This document shows positions 2,092 to 51,331 of a stretch of DNA of 51,331 nt, in pieces. Source of the DNA: a virus; the IMG/VR virus record IMGVR_UViG_3300045988_092522, positions 1 through 51,331 of that record. One strand, 5' to 3'. The number at the start of each line of letters is the position of its first letter. Positions within the stretch are counted from its first letter, which is position 1. The notes beneath the pieces were generated by a model. It was not told the DNA's origin. It made no database searches and worked only from the letters and a program-made list of their open reading frames with translations. The position numbers and the translations under genes were made by a program.

Positions 2092-2952
2092 TCAAAATCT
2101 CCCTTCTTCTGCTCGGCTTACCTCCCACGGAAATTCCTGCCGAAAGCTGCCTTTCATCAGGTCGCGTAAGCTATCTTTCATGAACACAGGCGTTCCGTAC
2201 TTCTTGCAGACTTGTGCGATTTCTTCCACCCATTCCTTGTTGGGGACGGTTCTGTGCTTTGACTTGCCAGTTTCAGCACCGATAACCACCCATTCCCAGC
2301 GTCGAAACGTGCTGTAATCTCCGTTGCTTCCGCTTGAACTTATGAACCATTCCGGCTCGATAGGCTCAAGAATAGGTTCTACGGATACCCATTCAGCATT
2401 GGATTTATACGCGACAGCCATCATGGCATCATCAGTCGCAGATGCACCGAACATCATAACCGGCCTGCTTTTTTCGAGATACATTTCCTCCCACGAAGGC
2501 ATCAAGGATGAGATTTTCTCGTATCTGGAGGGAGCTTTCGTTAGAAACAGATACCGATGTTGTGGAGCAGCATCGCACGCTTTCAAGACTTCTGCAATCC
2601 ACTCGTCTGGCACCCAATGGCCGAACAGGTCTGCCATTGAGCACACGAAGACGTTGCGCGGCTTCTTCCAGTGCTGCGGCTCGTCCAGTTTGTAGCGGTA
2701 AAAGGTTGGCAGAAAACCGAACGGATACGGTTGAATTTTCCCGGCGCTGATTCCTGCATCTCGCATATATGCGTATGTATCGGTGCAACGCACAGGCTCA
2801 TGCAGCACGGGATAATCAGCAAATATCGGCATCTGGTTTGCGCCGAACCGCTCCGCAATCCTTCGAGCGTAGCAGTATTCGCAGCCGTGCAAACAGCCTG
2901 TTACCGGATTCCATGTGCTTTCGCACCAGTCTATCTTAGTCTTAGCGCCCAT
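2092..2952 (-). CDS. Phage Gp37/Gp68 family protein (DUF5131)
   Basis: The N-terminus TKIDWCESTWNPVTGCLHGCEYCYA is the family signature (TKIEW..WNPv.GC....C..CYA). Confidence 0.8.
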   Translation of the reverse strand: MGAKTKIDWCESTWNPVTGCLHGCEYCYARRIAERFGANQMPIFADYPVLHEPVRCTDTYAYMRDAGISAGKIQPYPFGFLPTFYRYKLDEPQHWKKPRNVFVCSMADLFGHWVPDEWIAEVLKACDAAPQHRYLFLTKAPSRYEKISSLMPSWEEMYLEKSRPVMMFGASATDDAMMAVAYKSNAEWVSVEPILEPIEPEWFISSSGSNGDYSTFRRWEWVVIGAETGKSKHRTVPNKEWVEEIAQVCKKYGTPVFMKDSLRDLMKGSFRQEFPWEVSRAEEGRF

Positions 2953-3088
2953 CTACACTATTATCCTCCTCAAACTCTCCGTCAAAGCTGCGCAGGCCGA
3001 AGCCCAGCAGGGCGAGGTTGTAACCGGCGACGCCGCCGATCAGGAAAATGTAGGCGATGAGCACCGCCTTGATGATCTGATTCAGCAT
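2942..3088 (-). CDS. Small membrane protein (48 aa, MLNQIIKAVLIAYIFLIGGVAGYNLALLGFGL...)
   Basis: Internal ATG of the otherwise Arg/Gly-rich track ORF 2942..3400. One clear hydrophobic helix. Fills the gap between flanking genes. Confidence 0.4.
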   Translation of the reverse strand: MLNQIIKAVLIAYIFLIGGVAGYNLALLGFGLRSFDGEFEEDNSVDGR

Positions 3089-3675
3089 ACTTCCTCCCAC
3101 ACGAAGCGGCCTTTGCCGGAATTGCGCCACTGGCCGAGGCCGCGCAGCGCGCCATAGTCCAGGCACTCTTTGACGGCCGCCTCCAGCTCGTCCGTCAGCA
3201 TCACAATCGTCATCGTCATCGTGCTCCCCGCCGGAACGGTCTCGCTGCTGGCCAACGCGGTGCGGCTGCCCGTCGGGCCGTCCGTTCGCAGCGAGCGCTG
3301 ACAGTTGCCCATCTCGCCGCACACCTCCACGGGGATTTTGCGCTCCCGGACAAAAATCAGACCGTCGACGAACTTTTTGTAGGCCTTGAGCTTGCTGCAC
3401 GCCGTACCCGGCACGCGACGAAGCATGCCGATGGAATCCTTGAACATGCCCCGAATCTGATAGTCCCAGAAAAACGGGTGGCCGTCCTCCAGCCTCGGGA
3501 AAACGGTGGTGCCGCTCTCCACCATCGCGTCCACGCCGTTTTCTTCGATCTCCTCCGCCAACTTCGCCGCATCGGGCGCGTTGCTGGCGATGTAGTCGCG
3601 GTAGATTTCAGGGTTCGCGGGCATCATGCCCAGGGCTTCTTCCGTCAGAGTGATCCTGATTCTCAGTTCCTTCAT
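3082..3675 (-). CDS. Hypothetical protein (197 aa) ending in a Gly-rich loop GLGQWRNSGKGRF
   Basis: Track ORF 3082..3711. I prefer the start MKELRIRI at 3675 because GAGGAGGAAAAAAAC precedes it. Confidence 0.7.
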   Translation of the reverse strand: MKELRIRITLTEEALGMMPANPEIYRDYIASNAPDAAKLAEEIEENGVDAMVESGTTVFPRLEDGHPFFWDYQIRGMFKDSIGMLRRVPGTACSKLKAYKKFVDGLIFVRERKIPVEVCGEMGNCQRSLRTDGPTGSRTALASSETVPAGSTMTMTIVMLTDELEAAVKECLDYGALRGLGQWRNSGKGRFVWEEVC

Positions 3676-4087
3676 GTTTTTTTCCTCCTCAATTGTTTGG
3701 CCCCGCGCCATTTCATATCGCAGCTATGCAGAGCTATTCCTTTCCATTGCAATTCGTATCAGTGCAGTGCAAATCCCTCGCAAGTCTGATCTTTTCACCT
3801 CGGCTCTCAGCTACTCCCATCCCTTCCGTTGCAATTCATTGCTTCTCAGTACATCTCATATCCTTTTCCACGCGCGTCTTTTCTCCTCCGTTTCTTTTCG
3901 ATTCATGTCGTATCCAATCTTATCCTTTTCAGTTCATGTCGTATCCAATCCGTTCCTTTTCGTTTCAATTCGATTCATCGCGTTGCACTGATGAGCTATT
4001 TCTTATCAACGCAGTTCATAGCAAGTCCCGTCGCATCTTCTCCATTTCTTTTCACCTCGGCTCAGGGCCGCTCTCATCCATTTCCTC
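3676..4087. repeat. Non-coding, AT-richer, strand-asymmetric region with phased degenerate repeats (candidate iteron array / ori, or a structured GGA-rich RNA)
   Basis: No credible ORF on either strand. 30-bp tandem copies at 3891-3920 and 3921-3950. A 17-bp exact repeat tcttttcacctcggctc at 3790 and 4047. ttgcaattc at 3747 and 3829. Confidence 0.7.
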
Positions 4088-4672
4088 TCATTCCCACACC
4101 CGGACGTATCCAGGCATGACCGTAAAATTGCTGAGCACCTCTTCCGGCAGGGCGTATCGGTCGGGATCGTAGTCATGCCCGGGGCGGTAGTTTTTCGGCA
4201 GCATGCCCACGCACTGCTCCTCGGTCAGGCCGTAGGCCTTGGCGATGCGCTCGACGATCTTGGGATGGGTGACGGTCTTGTCGTCCTGCTCCAGCCAGTC
4301 CAGCAGCAGCGGGGAGATTTCGAGCTTCCGCGCCATTTCCGCGACGGAGAGGCCATAGGCCTGCCGGCCTCGCATCAGGTAGTATCGCGGGCCAAGCGTG
4401 GGGACGTAGACCGCCGCCGGTGGAGCGTCGGAGACGCGCGTTTCACCTTTGAGCGCTTTTCTGCTTTGTTTCTTGGTTTGCTGCTCTTTGACTGCGCATC
4501 CGGCGCACATATGCGTATGCCCGTAACGGAGCGTTTCACCGTGGATTATTTTTTCAAATCCGCAGTCGCAGCGGCACATGTATCGGATTCTTCCGCTCGG
4601 GCTGGGTTCCGCTTCGGCGATCACCGTCCAGTGGTTGTAGCGCCTGCCGATCATGTCAATCTTTGCGCCCAT
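4088..4672 (-). CDS. Zn-ribbon plus helix-turn-helix DNA-binding protein (194 aa)
   Basis: N-terminal CRCDCG...CAGC cysteine cluster. C-terminal XRE-like segment YGLSVAEMARKLEISPLLLDWLE. Confidence 0.7.
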   Translation of the reverse strand: MGAKIDMIGRRYNHWTVIAEAEPSPSGRIRYMCRCDCGFEKIIHGETLRYGHTHMCAGCAVKEQQTKKQSRKALKGETRVSDAPPAAVYVPTLGPRYYLMRGRQAYGLSVAEMARKLEISPLLLDWLEQDDKTVTHPKIVERIAKAYGLTEEQCVGMLPKNYRPGHDYDPDRYALPEEVLSNFTVMPGYVRVWE

Positions 4673-10258: not shown

Positions 10259-10354
10259 CGAGTCTCACATCCTTTGTCTGTCATTGCTTGCCCTGCCATC
10301 GTCAGCGCCGGTGGGGCGGTTCCGGCGGACACCCTCGCGGGTGTTTCGGCTTGG

Positions 10355-20263: not shown

Positions 20264-21256
20264 TTATTTCAGCTTCCCGTATTTGCCGGACACCCATCCG
20301 TTTTGATTTTCATAGGCCACCAGCAGCCAGCCGTTGTCGGCCTTCTCGCCGCCGTAGGGGAGCACGTCGCCCCGATGCGCCACGCCGAGGATTTTGCCGT
20401 CGGTGTTGGGCGCGGTGCGCACGTAGCAATTGCCGCCCTCGATGGCCACATAGCGATGCTCCGCCTCTGGCTTGTCCGCTTCCAGCGCCTCCAGCATGGC
20501 CGCGTGGCTCTTGGGGCCGTACTGGCCGTCCATGCCGAGCTTGTGGTCGCCCTGAAACGCCATCACCGCAAGCTCCGTGGCGTCGCCGAACTCGCCGTCC
20601 GCGCCCCACTTGCCCAGATCGTAACCCAGCTGGATGAGGTAATGCTGGAGCTGCTTCACATCCGCGCCCTCCGCGCCGTGCTTCAGCAGCCGCTCACCCA
20701 GCGCATACTCCCTGGCCTCGACAGTCCCCTCGTACTTTGCGCCGTCATCCAGCACCACCACCGTGTGGCCGTTGGTCTTGGTCACGAGGATGTCGCCCTT
20801 GCCGAGGTACGCGCTCTGGTCGGTGTACTTCGCGCCCTTCAGCTCCACAAACGCGCCGGTTTTCAGCAGATTCGCGGGCATGTTCCCCGTCCGGAAATCG
20901 CTGGGCAGCCCCATGATACCCGCGTAGGCGCAGCACACCCGCACCAGCGCCGAGCAGTCCGTCTCGCAGTTGGTCTTGACCTTGGCGCAGTCAAAGCCCA
21001 GCGGTTCAGCCACCTTGTACAGCGTGTTGCGCTGCCACTGGTCGTAGCCGATGTGGCTGTTGCCGCACGCCGCCTCCATGTCCGCGGCGATCCTCAGCGC
21101 CGCCGCGCGATCCTTGGCGCGGAACACCCGCCAGCCCTTTTTGTGCAGATACCACTTCTGCGTGCTCAGCTCGCGTCCGGTCTGGTCGCCCGCCTTGCCG
21201 CCGTAGGCCTTGCCCCTCTCGTCGATTCTCGCCGATCCTACCCGTACCGTCGCCAT
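20264..21256 (-). CDS. Endolysin: Cys/His peptidase-like N-domain, PG_binding_1 and SH3b
   Basis: ...ETDCSALV...GHTVVV (NlpC/P60-like dyad). GADVKQLQHYLIQLGYDLGKWGADGEFG (PG-binding repeat). C-terminal SH3-like YVRTAPNTDGKILGV...GWVSGKY. Confidence 0.8.
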   Translation of the reverse strand: MATVRVGSARIDERGKAYGGKAGDQTGRELSTQKWYLHKKGWRVFRAKDRAAALRIAADMEAACGNSHIGYDQWQRNTLYKVAEPLGFDCAKVKTNCETDCSALVRVCCAYAGIMGLPSDFRTGNMPANLLKTGAFVELKGAKYTDQSAYLGKGDILVTKTNGHTVVVLDDGAKYEGTVEAREYALGERLLKHGAEGADVKQLQHYLIQLGYDLGKWGADGEFGDATELAVMAFQGDHKLGMDGQYGPKSHAAMLEALEADKPEAEHRYVAIEGGNCYVRTAPNTDGKILGVAHRGDVLPYGGEKADNGWLLVAYENQNGWVSGKYGKLK

Positions 21257-21273
21257 GTTTCATCCATCCTTTC

Positions 21274-21585
21274 TCATTTCGGCGTTCCCGCCGCAATCCA
21301 TGTCACAGCGGGCATGCGTCCCGATGAATCACCGTTAAAAATCCGCGCCGTGAAACCCGTGGTCGTGGGCAAACCGTTCACCGACACGCAGCATCGCCCA
21401 AATGTCCCCGCAGTGGACTCTGACTTGAAGCCCACCACCACTACAGGCACGCTCTGAAACGCCTTGGGGAACGTCACCGATACATCTGCATAGCTGCCGC
21501 TGGATACGTTCGTCGCAGCGATAAGTCCGCACTGCACCCCCACATCCGCCGGAAAATGGTTGTGCCCCGTGTTCCAGTTTGCCAT
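21274..21585 (-). CDS. Tail-fibre-associated protein (gp53-like / H-type lectin-like C-terminal domain)
   Basis: VSVTFPKAFQSVPVVVVG...GFTARIFN fits this pattern; lies in the fibre module. Confidence 0.5.
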   Translation of the reverse strand: MANWNTGHNHFPADVGVQCGLIAATNVSSGSYADVSVTFPKAFQSVPVVVVGFKSESTAGTFGRCCVSVNGLPTTTGFTARIFNGDSSGRMPAVTWIAAGTPK

Positions 21586-41703: not shown

Positions 41704-43157
41704 TTTACCTCCAAAATTTCATCGTCCTCCGCGATCTGACGCGCCGAAACCCATCCGCGCCGGGTCAGGATCGGATGCTCGCCGCTCGCTCGGAGGATTC
41801 GACCGTCCTCCAGCTCGATTTCGAAAATCTCCTCCGCCCCCGTCTGCCGAACGTTAAAAAAGCGAGCCGTCACCGCTCGCTCGTTTTCCTCGTCGTAGCA
41901 GATCACCGCGCCGGTCTGACCGACCAGCTCGTCGATGCGCTTTTCGCCGTCCACGGTGCATACCAGCGTGTCTCCGGTCAGGCAGTGGTTGTCCTTGTCC
42001 GGATACGCGGGGAGGAAATTCCCGTTCTTGTCCTGCAAATATTCGTATTTCTGGAATTCCCGGGCGATGTTGGGCGTTCGCCGCGGGTCGACGACGATTG
42101 CGCCCAAGTCCTCCAGCCATCGCATGCCGTGCTCCACGCTGCCCGCGCCCTTGCGAACGCCAACGGCGGTCACGCCACGCCGCTTCAGCTCGGCGATCAT
42201 CCGCGGGTCGGCGCTGTCGCAGCGCACGATCTCCCGCCCTGCCAGCGCGGCGACCTTTTCCGCCAGCGTGTCGATGTTGGTGTGGGAGCCGTAGTACTCG
42301 GCGACGGCATACAGCCTGCGCGTCCTGCGGCTGTAGGCCCAGCGTGTGAAAGCGTCCGGATCGGTGGCAAAGCCGAAGTCGAGGCCGTTGTAAAAGGTCT
42401 CAAGGGAATCAATTTCCTTGGAGTCGATCTCCCGCAGCTCGAGATTATCGAACACATTGCCGCCGGTGCCCGTGACCTCGCCCAGGTACTCGTTGCGATA
42501 GGCGCGCTCGTTGGTGGCGCGGATGCTGTCTGCGAGGGCGATGAACGATTCGCCCAGCCAGTCCCGATGCTCGGAAATCACGTCCAGATAGGTACTGGAA
42601 TGGATAAATCGATCCGCCCGAGGCTTCAGCGCCTCCTCGTTGACCCAGTTCTGCGCCGTTTTGGGCGGGTTGTAGGTGAAAATCGTGACGGCCCGATCCA
42701 CGCCGCGAAGCACGGACTGCTGGATGGAATGCACGTCCTCCAGCGAGCGGAACTCCGTCAGCTCCTCAAACCACAGAAATTTGAAATAGCCGCGGGTCAG
42801 CGTGATGGACTTGGACTTCATGGGATCGTCGGCCCCGCGGAACATGATGCGCTGGCCCGTGTCCACGCGGGCGATCTCCAGCGGCGATTTACGGAACTTG
42901 AAGAGCGACTCCCAGCCGAGGCGGCCGATGGCCGTGGCGATAGCCGCGTATACGCTGTCGGCGAGGGTGTTGCCCACGCGGCGGTATACGATGGCGTTGG
43001 CGCTGGTGTCCTCCAGCAATCCCATGACGATCTGCATGGCGGCGAAGGACGACTTGGTTGAGCCTCGGCCGCCCAGAAGCCAGTACTCCGCATGGCCCAT
43101 GCGCCCCATGTCCTCGGAGACCTCGTTGAATTTGCTGCACGTCACCACGCGCGTCAT
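41700..43157 (-). CDS. terL: Large terminase N-extein (391 aa, PBSX/XtmB-like) fused to the N-intein (94 aa)
   Basis: Walker A LLGGRGSTKS. The body runs through ...LPAYPDKDNH and then switches to CLTGDTLVCTVDG...ASGEHPIL...EILEVK-stop. Confidence 0.85.
   Translation of the reverse strand: MTRVVTCSKFNEVSEDMGRMGHAEYWLLGGRGSTKSSFAAMQIVMGLLEDTSANAIVYRRVGNTLADSVYAAIATAIGRLGWESLFKFRKSPLEIARVDTGQRIMFRGADDPMKSKSITLTRGYFKFLWFEELTEFRSLEDVHSIQQSVLRGVDRAVTIFTYNPPKTAQNWVNEEALKPRADRFIHSSTYLDVISEHRDWLGESFIALADSIRATNERAYRNEYLGEVTGTGGNVFDNLELREIDSKEIDSLETFYNGLDFGFATDPDAFTRWAYSRRTRRLYAVAEYYGSHTNIDTLAEKVAALAGREIVRCDSADPRMIAELKRRGVTAVGVRKGAGSVEHGMRWLEDLGAIVVDPRRTPNIAREFQKYEYLQDKNGNFLPAYPDKDNHCLTGDTLVCTVDGEKRIDELVGQTGAVICYDEENERAVTARFFNVRQTGAEEIFEIELEDGRILRASGEHPILTRRGWVSARQIAEDDEILEVK
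41703..41984 (-). other. Split intein, N-terminal half (blocks A and B)
   Basis: Cys1-LTGDTLV (block A) and SGEHPIL (block B, TxxH-type); 94 aa and then a stop. Confidence 0.8.
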
Positions 43158-46566: not shown

Positions 46567-46974
46567 TTAAGGTTTCAGCTCGACCGTAAACGGTACGTCA
46601 TTGGTGTGGAAATACAGCTTGTAATGGTACGGGTCGGTGTGCGTTCCCGTGATGTCCTCGACGACATACATGGTGTACTGGTTGAGGTAGATGTAATTCT
46701 TCTTATATTTCCCATCTCCGACCTTTACCGTGACGACCAGCTCCTGATTGCTGTTGTTGGAGATGTTCATCCAGCCCTCAGCTTCCATGATGATTTTGTC
46801 CGTGCGCGCGTTGTAGACGGTAATCTTGCGCTCACATTCAAAATATTCTGCCTGTTTGCTGATGTTCACGTTGACCTTGTCCGCTTCTGAGCATCCGCAG
46901 AGTAACAGGCCCAGCCCAATCAGCCCCAACAGAGCAATCGCCAGCAGTCTGACATTGTGACTGTATCTTTTCAC
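46567..46974 (-). CDS. Lipoprotein (135 aa)
   Basis: Signal peptide with lipobox LLLCGC. Visibly lower GC than its neighbours. Confidence 0.7.
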   Translation of the reverse strand: MKRYSHNVRLLAIALLGLIGLGLLLCGCSEADKVNVNISKQAEYFECERKITVYNARTDKIIMEAEGWMNISNNSNQELVVTVKVGDGKYKKNYIYLNQYTMYVVEDITGTHTDPYHYKLYFHTNDVPFTVELKP

Positions 46975-47909
46975 TTTTCATCCTCCTCCTTATCTTTCTT
47001 ATTTTCAGGAGCTTCTACCCACCAGTACATGACGTCCTCGGCGGTTTCCCATTTTCCGTTTTCTTGATTTCGCAGAATCTCGTTGTGGGCTATGCACCAT
47101 TTTAGCATTCTATTAAACGCCTTTAGGTACAACTGCTTGTACTTTGGATAGCGTTCAAATCCCTTTTTTTGACTTTTTTTGCCGCTCAGCGGACACCCGA
47201 TGCACCCCAAGCGTTCAAACCCCTCGTCGTACAGGCAGCAGTGCGGGACTTTCACAACGTTGTTCAAAAATTCCCATACTTCTTCGTCTTCCCAGTCAAC
47301 AATGGGATTGACCAGCGTCTTTTGCGTTCGATAGCACTGCTCAACCATTCTGCGGCTCGGATCGTTGTCATCATTGAGGATTACGCCCTTGTTTTTGTTC
47401 AGCCGATAATTTGCTCCCACGTCCTCGGCGAGTTTCCGCGTTGATTTGGGCTTGTTTTGGATATTTACGACATCCTGATTGGCTCTTCTCCGTGTCGATT
47501 CTGCCCAGCGAACGCCCGTGACTGTGATCCGCCCTTTGCCCTGAGATTCCTTTAGTGTTTGACAACAGTATCTCGCGAACATCGTGGGCGGCATTTTATT
47601 TTTGACAATGAGATTCCACATCGTAATTCGCTTGCCGTCCTCGTCTCTTGGGTAATCAAAGATCACGTCGGGATAATGCTCTCGGATGAAATAGATAAGC
47701 TCCGGAGGGTCGACGCTGGTCACATTGTAATGGGCGTCGAATTTTACGCCCGCCATCTTTGCGAGATGATAGATGCACTGGCTGTCCTTGCCGCCGGAGA
47801 AGGCGAGATAGTAACCCTCCGGCGGTTCAAACGACTGAAATCGCTGGATTGCGATATCCAGCTTCGTGCGGATGACCCCGTCCGCGCAGATGATCTGCTG
47901 CATCAGCAT
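46971..47909 (-). CDS. PAPS-reductase-family / DndC-like PP-loop ATP pyrophosphatase with a C-terminal Cys cluster
   Basis: PP-loop AFSGGKDS and C-terminal CCLYDEGFERLGCIGCP. Confidence 0.8.
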   Translation of the reverse strand: MLMQQIICADGVIRTKLDIAIQRFQSFEPPEGYYLAFSGGKDSQCIYHLAKMAGVKFDAHYNVTSVDPPELIYFIREHYPDVIFDYPRDEDGKRITMWNLIVKNKMPPTMFARYCCQTLKESQGKGRITVTGVRWAESTRRRANQDVVNIQNKPKSTRKLAEDVGANYRLNKNKGVILNDDNDPSRRMVEQCYRTQKTLVNPIVDWEDEEVWEFLNNVVKVPHCCLYDEGFERLGCIGCPLSGKKSQKKGFERYPKYKQLYLKAFNRMLKWCIAHNEILRNQENGKWETAEDVMYWWVEAPENKKDKEEDEK

Positions 47910-50196: not shown

Positions 50197-51331
50197 TCAT
50201 TCCTCCTTCGGCCAGATCCTTAATTCCTCCGCAACGCCGCCCAACACGAATGCCGCGCATGGGAGCGCGATGCCGTTGCCCCACATTTTGTACTCTGCAC
50301 TATCCGTGTGCAGGGAGTTATACCACTTGGTCAGCGCCTCCGCGCTGTATTTCTTGGGCTGCTTCCCCGCAATGGACGCAGAAGTGTCGCGTACCTGCTG
50401 CCAGAACGCCAGTTCTTCGTCGGACAGCCTGTCCTTATGGTCGGGGACGCCCCACCCGTCGGGGAAGCCCTGCAAGCGGCAGCATTCCAGCGGTGTCAAA
50501 CGGCGAATGATGTACTTGCGCGGCGGCTTGCCGGAGGTCAGCACGCTGGGTGTGCAATTCAGGCTTTGCCCGCCATTCGCCTTGGCTTGCAGCGTGTGCG
50601 TTTTTTCTTCGTCCAGTACGGCGTTCCGGCAGTCCACGCCGTAGACGGGAGGATGCTCGACAACCAGATCGCGAGGACTTTTGAAATCTCGCGCTGCCAT
50701 TGTGGATGCTATGCCATCAGCGGCATACTCTCCAATTTTCGGGCTGCGATATACTGTGACCGCCGTGTAATCCATCACACGGTTCTCGTGGTCTCCGGTC
50801 AGCGTCGGGCAGCGCGTCCCGTCGCCATTCCCGCGTGCGTCGTAGCACACAACGTTCTGTCCGCGGTCTATGCAGGGGGACGCATCCGCTTCCGCCGTCA
50901 GCGTCCGGGCGACCTGCGGATAGCAGACGCAATTCGGCTGCTGCGCGCTTTCAACGTTTCCAGCATTCGCCGCAGTCAGCGAGTGAAAGACCTTTGGATA
51001 GCACACCGCAGGCACGGAGTTCCCGCCAGCCTCGCTGCCCAGCGTCGGCGTGACGGTTTCGCTTTCGCCCAGACTGCGCGCCTTCGCGCCCTGTCCAGCT
51101 TTAAAGCAGATCGCCGGGAACACGCCGTCAATGGCGTACTGCCGGATGGTATGCGCGTCCCACAGATTCAGACACTCAACGCCACGGCTTCTTCCAGTGC
51201 TTCCCGGAGCATCGGCGGCAGCGCCTTGCCCCGTCGCTCCGCACGCCGCAGGATGCCCTCGCAGGCCCTCGCGCTCAAATAATATTTCTCCGGCGCGTCC
51301 GCCTGCAAAATCTGCCACAAGGTAGATTCTC
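50197..51331 (-). CDS. DNA (cytosine-5) methyltransferase, C-terminal part (long variable region plus motifs IX and X)
   Basis: RRLTPLECCRLQGFPDGW (motif IX) and WGNGIALPCAAFV (motif X). The track 'M' at 51318 is an internal GTG (Val). The frame stays open to the contig end and joins 703..120. Confidence 0.9.
   Translation of the reverse strand, partial: RIYLVADFAGGRAGEILFEREGLRGHPAACGATGQGAAADAPGSTGRSRGVECLNLWDAHTIRQYAIDGVFPAICFKAGQGAKARSLGESETVTPTLGSEAGGNSVPAVCYPKVFHSLTAANAGNVESAQQPNCVCYPQVARTLTAEADASPCIDRGQNVVCYDARGNGDGTRCPTLTGDHENRVMDYTAVTVYRSPKIGEYAADGIASTMAARDFKSPRDLVVEHPPVYGVDCRNAVLDEEKTHTLQAKANGGQSLNCTPSVLTSGKPPRKYIIRRLTPLECCRLQGFPDGWGVPDHKDRLSDEELAFWQQVRDTSASIAGKQPKKYSAEALTKWYNSLHTDSAEYKMWGNGIALPCAAFVLGGVAEELRIWPKEE
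51213..51331. repeat. Terminal direct repeat, second copy (identical to 1..119)
   Basis: Read directly. Confidence 0.95.

Follow-up and report, generated by a model that had tools for sequence, protein, structure and literature searches.

A G-phased non-coding array paired with a solitary Cas7-like RAMP gene in phage genomes: a candidate two-part RNA-protein module

Background

On single-stranded RNA, Cas7 subunits assemble head-to-tail at a constant nucleotide spacing. A periodic base that matches the footprint of a polymerising protein is likewise the hallmark of the trp leader bound by TRAP, of the assembly origin of tobacco mosaic virus (TMV) and of the 5' repeats of potexviruses. In the trp leader, (G/U)AG triplets separated by 2-3-nt spacers are wrapped round an 11-mer protein ring; the TMV origin carries a G at every third nucleotide, with 3 nt bound per subunit; and the coat proteins of potex- and potyviruses cover 5 nt per subunit, with GCAAA pentamer repeats at the 5' end of papaya mosaic virus (PapMV). 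Phage-encoded non-coding RNAs can also engage Cas proteins, the Racr RNAs described by Camara-Wilpert et al. in 2023 reportedly doing so in non-canonical complexes. In all class 1 systems, Cas7 subunits follow a '5+1' pattern with 6 nt per subunit (PMC13069675). Here we analyse a 51,331-nt stretch of virus DNA (IMG/VR record IMGVR_UViG_3300045988_092522, positions 1 to 51,331, hereafter the window), in which a gene-free gap at 3676-4087 is occupied by a lattice of regularly spaced G residues and adjoins the gene of a solitary protein of the Cas7/RAMP type.

Results

The minus strand of the gap carries a G at the head of nearly every successive pentamer, in one unbroken chain that runs slightly beyond the gap at its upstream end. 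Two features describe it:

3705..4115, minus strand: G-phased pentamer array of 80 contiguous G(A/C)NNN units (segmentation, G autocorrelation, chain score)
3750..4105, minus strand: eleven 6-nt 'punctuation' units (segmentation)

G stands first in 79 of the 80 units, 69 of which are 5 nt and 11 of which are 6 nt long, giving a mean period of ~5.14 nt (411 nt over 80 units). The 6-nt units start at 4105, 4084, 4048, 4002, 3961, 3930, 3894, 3868, 3832, 3781 and 3750, and most of them read GAAA(A/T/C)G or GCAA(C/T)G and are followed by GA. Autocorrelation of G on this strand was 87 at lag 5 (44 expected), 80 at lag 10 and 71 at lag 15, beyond which it drifts to lags 16, 21 and 26. The chain score of 66 compares with 7.0 ± 2.1 (maximum 22) in 1000 dinucleotide-preserving shuffles, and in a window-wide scan this was the sole strong array (score 71 versus ≤22.5 elsewhere). 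The true extent of the array is ~4115..3705, the last ~25 nt of the gene at 4088-4672 being already in lattice phase. A weaker chain at 20919-21309 on the minus strand, considered as a second array, was rejected as a chance run in G-rich coding sequence.

The lattice is under selection as a lattice. When the region was aligned with five near-identical IMG/VR phages, whose flanking genes are 94-99% identical, the intergenic sequence proved to be heavily rewritten, with invariant columns at each fifth position and a unit number of 74-90. One of these relatives, L002, has flanks of 94-98% identity but an array whose middle part defies alignment, and even so G comes first in 86 of 90 units. Identity to the window at unit positions 1 to 5 was 86/72/50/33/48% in this phage and 97/88/67/65/68% in another (L003). 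Conservation that is high at the G and the next base and lower afterwards therefore indicates selection on the phased G and not on the sequence as such. The original prediction, made from the letters of the window, had regarded free variability in close relatives as fatal to a functional element; the sequence does vary, while the G lattice is retained.

The same anatomy was seen across 118 distinct arrays of the family. Steps between G anchors were 5 nt in 9229 cases, 6 nt in 1909 and 4 or 7 nt in 156, so that the phase is never lost. The unit begins with G (94%), continues with C (52%) or A (35%) and then A (51%) or G (22%), and its last two positions are nearly free. The median array is 443 nt long (86 units), clearly periodic arrays ranging from ~130 nt to ~1.7 kb. 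The 6-nt motif of the family is G-C-A-A-N-G followed by G-C/A-A, with the extra base a G in 92% of 2025 cases; such units are 21-41 nt apart. They make up 0.167 ± 0.027 of an array, or one unit in six, where the binomial spread would be 0.041, and a fraction held so tightly keeps the mean period at 5.17 nt. Some phages have very long arrays of ~290-330 units (1.5-1.7 kb), and in others the RAMP gene is flanked by an array on either side. Examples of long or two-sided arrays are:

L092, 1472-2956
L149, 9452-11119
L235, 3519-5150
L155, 2062-4173
L243, 12070-13488

On the same strand as the array, and just downstream of it, lies a gene that we identified mainly through the predicted structure of its product:

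3082..3675, minus strand: gene of a 197-aa solitary Cas7/Csm3-like RAMP protein (AlphaFold2 model, Foldseek, profile search)

The protein had no Pfam, PHROG or NCBIfam match. Its AlphaFold2 model, built on 38 homologues (predicted local distance difference test, pLDDT, 87; predicted template-modelling score, pTM, 0.80), shows an RRM-like fold with a beta-hairpin thumb at ~residues 123-147. The top 50 Foldseek matches in the PDB are all type III or type VII CRISPR effector subunits, mostly of the Cas7 type (type III Csm3, type VII Cas7, Cmr4 and Cas7-11; best E 1.2e-7, TM 0.5-0.55), and the C-terminal G-rich loop GLGQWRNSGKGRF aligns to GIGGWLNKGYGRV of type VII Cas7. Sequence comparisons agree: phmmer gave a weak match to the Cas7 of type VII CRISPR-Cas, a family profile of diverse homologues run against PDB sequences found type VII Cas7 (8yhd and related, E 9.4e-6, 28 bits) and Csm4 (E 0.006), and the matches returned by PADLOC were all weak and all to RAMP families. 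We conclude that, as modelled, the protein is a member of the Cas7/RAMP superfamily. The target-RNA nucleases Csm3 and Cmr4 have their catalytic aspartate in the loop that follows beta-1; no invariant Asp occurs in an alignment of diverse homologues (A3), which hints at an inactive subunit like type VII Cas7. W183 is invariant and Q182, R184 and N185 are nearly so, and these four are candidates for a pocket that would hold the G.

The family is large, with 5216 homologues in a 90%-clustered database and 1610 clusters at 50% identity. Its members carry no informative source name, the few named ones being called 'hypothetical protein', and among deposited phages the protein of the window matches only four unannotated human-faecal phage records. 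Full-text literature searches on a 5-nt periodicity, on RAMP filaments and on Cas7 proteins that are solitary or phage-borne brought up no account of the module, which may nevertheless have been described elsewhere. The sole earlier trace is an automatic label, 'Cas system-associated RAMP superfamily protein', on one virome protein in BFVD, a homologue at 53% identity and TM 0.90. Variant architectures within the family include tandem double-RAMP fusions (P0133 and P0169), N-terminal Lys/Arg-rich extensions with AT-hook-like RGRP motifs (P0236 and P0266) and an N-terminal fusion to a phospholipase D (PLD) nuclease (P0157).

In hundreds of gut phages, array and RAMP gene are linked near-obligately and in the same orientation, whichever of the two is used as the starting point of the search. 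Starting from the protein, we collected 80 IMG/VR loci whose homologues are 55-99% identical; the strongest G-period-5 chain of the locus lies on the strand of the RAMP gene in 79, directly before or after it in 78 cases and ~900 nt upstream in one (L086). Contigs of metagenome-assembled genomes (MAGs), mostly from Oscillospiraceae and other gut and rumen Clostridia, had the array beside the gene in ~47 of 49 cases, the exceptions being one truncated gene and one homologue of only 29% identity. Altogether, the array adjoins the gene on the sense strand in ~126 of 129 loci of this protein-first set, and the linkage is seen down to ~47% identity. A Chloroflexi-associated homologue, found with the tandem double-RAMP protein P0133 (to which it is 35% identical), has a 400-nt array that fills the gap after the gene. 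Starting from the DNA, IMG/VR was scanned with the lattice pattern GCAANGGCANNGCANNGCANNGCNNNG and no protein information. This returned 120 loci, 99 of which hold an array; a RAMP gene adjoins it in 87 of the 99, and the other 12 arrays lie at or near the ends of loci or in loci only ~1-5 kb long, so that the gene may have been cut off. The 21 chance matches to the pattern that contain no array contain no RAMP gene either.

Orientation was followed in 166 distinct protein/array pairs. The array lies upstream of the RAMP gene in 81, downstream in 69 and on both sides in 5, and a tree built by the unweighted pair group method with arithmetic mean (UPGMA) implies at least 14 independent switches between upstream and downstream placement. 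Without exception (166 of 166), the purine-rich array strand coincides with the sense strand of the RAMP gene. Upstream-type arrays end 17-45 nt before the ATG, and downstream-type arrays follow the gene directly.

Clustering of neighbours in 81 loci found no conserved third gene. The neighbours are interchangeable early genes of phages, such as HTH (helix-turn-helix) repressors, antirepressor, Sak4, SSB-like protein and AAA ATPase. The same 81 loci contain none of the other cas genes (Cas5, Cas10, Cas8, Cas6, Cas14, adaptation), neither Cas5 nor a large subunit or nuclease accompanying the RAMP gene; at the locus in the window, a repeat search, Tandem Repeats Finder (TRF) and Rfam found no repeat-spacer array, that is, no near-identical 23-50-nt repeats with unique spacers. 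Many phages have the module just behind the cI, cro or antirepressor genes. In the phage of the window it follows the replication genes, close to where the block of early genes ends downstream; across phages it is the RAMP gene, and not the gene of the replisome organiser, that the array accompanies. Four loci whose arrays were scanned for promoters and terminators yielded no informative pattern.

Much of what the original prediction had said of the gap itself was borne out. It is bounded by the stop codon of the gene at 4088-4672 and by the ATG (3675) of the RAMP gene, all genes in this part of the window lying on the minus strand, and its sense (minus) strand has no open reading frame (ORF): every sense frame is interrupted by a mixture of TGA, TAG and TAA stops, which supports neither an alternative genetic code nor a hidden ORF. 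Stop-free runs on the plus strand (3626-3991, 3693-4172 and 3829-4119) are a by-product of its pyrimidine richness, and a 5-nt indel between the window and the relatives L001 and L004 would shift the frame of the last two; antisense ORFs were rejected on both grounds. As had been claimed, the gap is AT-richer than its surroundings, with a moderately low GC of 0.46 (range 0.44-0.48) against a window mean of 0.58, and it is strongly strand-biased, the minus strand being 69% purine, the maximum among all 412-nt windows of the 51 kb. The region had no DNA match among deposited phages, and a repeat search found no inverted repeats in it. Its predicted folding was no better than that of shuffles (minimum free energy z = -1.5 and -1.0 for the two RNA strands). 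Searches of Rfam with this array and eight others gave nothing at gathering or permissive thresholds, the best CRISPR-DR score being 15.4 bits against a threshold of 36.

The repeats reported earlier also exist, and it is their organising principle, the 5-nt G lattice, that had been overlooked. A 17-bp exact repeat at 3790/4047 and a repeat pair at 3737/3819 were recovered, together with degenerate 35-nt repeat families of 60-74% identity (repeat search, TRF). An adjacent duplication put at 30 bp has a period of 31:

3887..3967, no strand assigned: 31-nt tandem duplication, 2.6 copies, core copies at 3902 and 3933, equal to six lattice units (5×5+6) (TRF and repeat search)

Both the 17-bp and the 31-bp repeats are lost in relatives with 94-99% identical flanks. 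The recurrent spacings of 31, 41, 67 and 82, most of them previously taken as near-integral helical turns of iterons, are sums of 5- and 6-nt units, and the TATCC pentamers, described as DnaA-box-like, are GGATA lattice units read on the minus strand. GGA triplets number 21 in 412 nt and not 19; shuffles contain 15.6 ± 2.9, with 101 of 2000 reaching 21, so base composition explains the count. Most of these triplets mark the junction between a 6-nt unit with a final G and the GA unit that follows. Across homologous arrays GGA density ranges from 0 to 6.6 per 100 nt (median 2.7). The general idea that survives is that of a non-coding element, read off the minus strand, with multiple phased sites for protein, and in our view the region is probably an RNA to which one protein binds in many copies.

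Two further elements flank the RAMP gene:

3684..3690, minus strand: Shine-Dalgarno sequence GAGGAGG of the RAMP gene, 8 nt before the ATG at 3675
3052..3069, minus strand: weak terminator-like hairpin and T-run, 13 nt past the RAMP stop codon (consensus scan only)

The array ends ~15 nt upstream of the Shine-Dalgarno sequence. The hairpin may, tentatively, mark the end of a transcription unit carrying array and RAMP gene, the count of terminator-like sites not exceeding that in shuffles.

Other features of the window

The gene upstream of the array (4088-4672, minus strand) encodes an N-terminal Zn-ribbon, similar to part of PHROG 374 'HNH endonuclease' (E 3e-15), and a C-terminal HTH_31 domain. 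Immediately past the RAMP gene, 2092-2952 (minus strand) codes for a DUF5131 (Gp37/Gp68) protein that has a CX3CX2C motif (GCLHGCEYC) close to the N-terminus; promoter-like and terminator-like sites precede this gene, which is not conserved beside the module in other phages. In the early region, 10287-10351 (minus strand) matches the type II hammerhead ribozyme over the full-length model (Rfam RF02276, 40.6 bits versus a gathering threshold of 37). Also on the minus strand, 37332-38846 encodes a phage minor capsid protein 2 (PF06152) with a C-terminal Ntox50 bacterial toxin domain (E 8e-9), possibly a virion-delivered toxin, and the C-terminal segment of the large terminase at 41700-43157 weakly resembles an intein-splicing domain (27.6 bits, where the Pfam cut-off is 35.8). 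A gene resembling 3'-phosphoadenosine-5'-phosphosulfate (PAPS) reductase has Dam-type and Dcm-type methyltransferase genes in its neighbourhood, not far from the packaging genes (46971-47909, 40456-41703 and 50197-51318, minus strand), and these may form a DNA-modification cluster.

Discussion

We propose, with a probability of roughly 60%, that array and gene form a self-contained two-part phage module in which the RAMP protein polymerises along its own G-phased RNA. The ~410-nt non-coding array would be transcribed from the minus strand with the early operon, and in each 5-nt unit the G, together with the following A or C, would anchor one RAMP subunit. Head-to-tail polymerisation on this unstructured, purine-rich RNA would then yield a filament of ~80 subunits resembling a Cas7 backbone. 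About every sixth unit the extra G, forming a GG doublet, would offer an alternative register shifted by one nucleotide, relieve strain and hold the mean period at 5.17 nt. As to the role of such a filament, early expression and CRISPR ancestry make an anti-defence particle our first guess, and an RNA-protecting particle is another. Where the array abuts the ribosome-binding site, feedback on RAMP translation may be added; with 69 of 166 arrays downstream of the gene, this cannot be the main role. Subunits lying side by side are plausible, the rare natural tandem double-RAMP fusions fitting such an arrangement.

Several observations weigh against this proposal. One close homologue (IMG/VR locus L056, 3300002163_000321) and two distant ones (three loci, L260-L262; proteins of 265-322 aa, one of them on a 254-kb contig) have no array in the available sequence; these exceptions could belong to a subfamily that needs no array or has its array at another place. 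In known Cas7 backbones each subunit takes up 6 nt, whatever the bases (PMC13069675); the lattice here has a period of 5.17 nt and is specific for G. The variable distance between 6-nt units (21-41 nt) corresponds to no simple size of ring or turn. The model of the double-RAMP protein P0133 aligns across both domains to Cas7-11/gRAMP and to the fused Cas7s of type III-D (E ~1e-12), and is itself of moderate confidence (pLDDT 73, TM ~0.4 to Cas7-11); it therefore speaks for consistency and is not proof. Finally, the length of two lattice units, 10.33 nt, comes near one helical turn of double-stranded DNA, AT-hook-like extensions occur at the N-terminus of some members of the family, and we infer RNA rather than DNA as the acting form.

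A rival view is that the array is a duplex-DNA element, with phased half-turn contacts that the extra G keeps in a register of ~10.3 bp, coated or wrapped by the RAMP or another protein, as in a nucleoprotein organiser or a partition-like site. A mean period of 5.167 nt does give 10.33 bp per two units, held more tightly than by chance (standard deviation 0.027 versus 0.041), the extensions of P0236 and P0266 point the same way, and a DNA site, too, would be passed on together with the gene beside it. Characterised RAMPs, however, are binders of single-stranded RNA (PMC13069675 and established knowledge), and the purine bias and lack of secondary structure fit a single-stranded ligand. Moreover, the identity of the strand has been kept in all 166 pairs through at least 14 rearrangements, which a symmetric duplex site would not need, and we regard this explanation as unlikely.

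The array could also be a cis-acting leader or trailer and nothing else, controlling translation or stability through autoregulation by the RAMP protein or protection from RNases, with no particle formed. For T4 gp32 and TRAP, repression of translation by cooperative binding to leaders provides precedent, and the upstream-type arrays, ending within 45 nt of the start codon, stand beside the Shine-Dalgarno sequence. The downstream arrays, on the other hand, are unable to occlude the ribosome-binding site of the gene, and with lengths of 130 to ~1700 nt (median 443) the arrays are far larger than an operator needs to be. An exclusively cis-acting role is in our judgement rather improbable.

Both functions put forward in the original prediction fare much worse. 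The first was an iteron origin or centromere, bound by the Zn-ribbon/HTH protein or by a DnaD-like protein. For it speak the position of the array in the replication module, downstream of RusA and a Lin1244_N/DnaB_2 replisome organiser, an AT content above that of the flanking sequence and some longer direct repeats. Conserved repeats of 17-22 bp, an unwinding element, inverted repeats and DnaA boxes, by which an origin of this kind would be recognised, were not found in it: the conserved unit is 5 nt long and strand-specific, the longer repeats disappear in near-identical relatives, and GC is only moderately low. In other phages, besides, the array follows the RAMP gene beside cI, cro or antirepressor, away from replication genes, and its strand is strictly coupled to that gene. 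We thus give an origin very little credence.

The second was a sponge of the CsrB/RsmZ kind that titrates host CsrA, to which a sponge for a host protein of the TRAP type may be added. The 21 GGA in 412 nt of probable transcript, and a 5-nt spacing resembling that of TRAP sites, speak for it. GGA is not enriched beyond composition, though, no stem-loops present it, and it is not kept in homologous arrays, where the conserved feature is the G at every fifth or sixth position. In addition, the conserved dinucleotide is G-C/A and not (G/U)AG, Rfam has no match, and a dedicated RNA-binding protein encoded by the phage always adjoins, all of which makes a host-protein sponge highly unlikely. Least credible of all is a non-functional, degenerate pentanucleotide microsatellite born of slippage, for which the variable unit number of close relatives and internal duplications such as the 31-nt tandem might be cited, because decay would strike all positions equally, whereas position 1 is 94% conserved and positions 4-5 are near random in the 118 arrays, and because the linkage to one protein family holds in both search directions.

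Returning to the module in which the RAMP protein polymerises on the array RNA, we can extend it to a broader claim, which we hold tentatively and at somewhat less than even odds. It would represent an undescribed class of phage ribonucleoprotein (RNP), in which a solitary Cas7-type RAMP protein assembles, with base specificity, on a self-encoded, non-CRISPR lattice RNA with one G per subunit and a period of 5.17 nt. Its filaments would comprise tens to hundreds of subunits, and the RAMP protein would be exapted from, or ancestral to, the backbones of class 1 effectors. Such RNPs would be widespread in temperate phages of gut and rumen Clostridia and would act at an early stage of infection, for instance against host defences that are RNA-guided or RNA-sensing.

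If this is true, Cas7-type proteins exist independently of CRISPR-Cas, a very common phage module having one as its only protein, and there is an RNA 'code' for placing RAMP proteins, a G every 5-6 nt. The implications would extend to where class 1 backbones come from, to the way in which Cas7 filaments measure RNA and to phage counter-defence, and the module would provide a simple programmable scaffold for proteins on RNA, its length set by the number of units. The rule G[C/A]ANN, with GCAANG about every sixth unit, lets long 'gene-free' gaps be annotated in at least roughly 200 phage and MAG contigs examined here and probably in many more that carry this gene family.

Comparison with known systems

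The closest known relatives are the Cas7 backbones (Csm3/Cmr4, type VII Cas7, Cas7-11/gRAMP), with which the module shares the RAMP fold, the thumb hairpin, the G-rich loop, natural tandem fusions and a (here putative) RNA partner encoded beside the protein gene. It differs from them in lacking other cas genes and a repeat-spacer array, and in that its RNA is a continuous lattice of ~25-330 units in place of a CRISPR guide of 30-45 nt. Its period is 5.17 nt with a conserved G, as opposed to the 6 nt without base specificity of Cas7 (PMC13069675). The module is found among the early genes of temperate phages, and there are no matching targets in the phage: the array has no match longer than 13 nt elsewhere in the window, and a guide-like function against the phage itself was rejected on this ground.

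Racr RNAs and solitary CRISPR repeats would resemble the array as non-coding RNAs of phages that engage a Cas-type protein. Racrs, however, mimic host repeats and hijack host Cas proteins, whereas here the phage supplies its own Cas7-like protein and the array RNA bears no resemblance to a CRISPR repeat. CsrB/RsmZ sponges and the iteron origins of plasmids and phages are likewise multi-site protein-binding non-coding elements, and the features that define them were looked for in the array and are absent from it.

With TRAP and its target the array would have in common a short motif per subunit, a spacing of 5-6 nt, unstructured RNA and the tolerance of two spacer lengths. The TRAP site comprises 9-11 units and reads (G/U)AG, while there are ~80 units here, not 11, with the profile G, C/A, A; the partner here is a RAMP protein and not the TRAP beta-sandwich, and nothing points to a closed ring. 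The assembly-origin RNAs of helical viruses share with the array a periodic G, here in GCAAN-like units, that in the array would match the footprint of a polymerising protein. The coat proteins of those viruses encapsidate RNA genomes, whereas here a double-stranded DNA phage would encode a non-genomic RNA together with a CRISPR-type protein.

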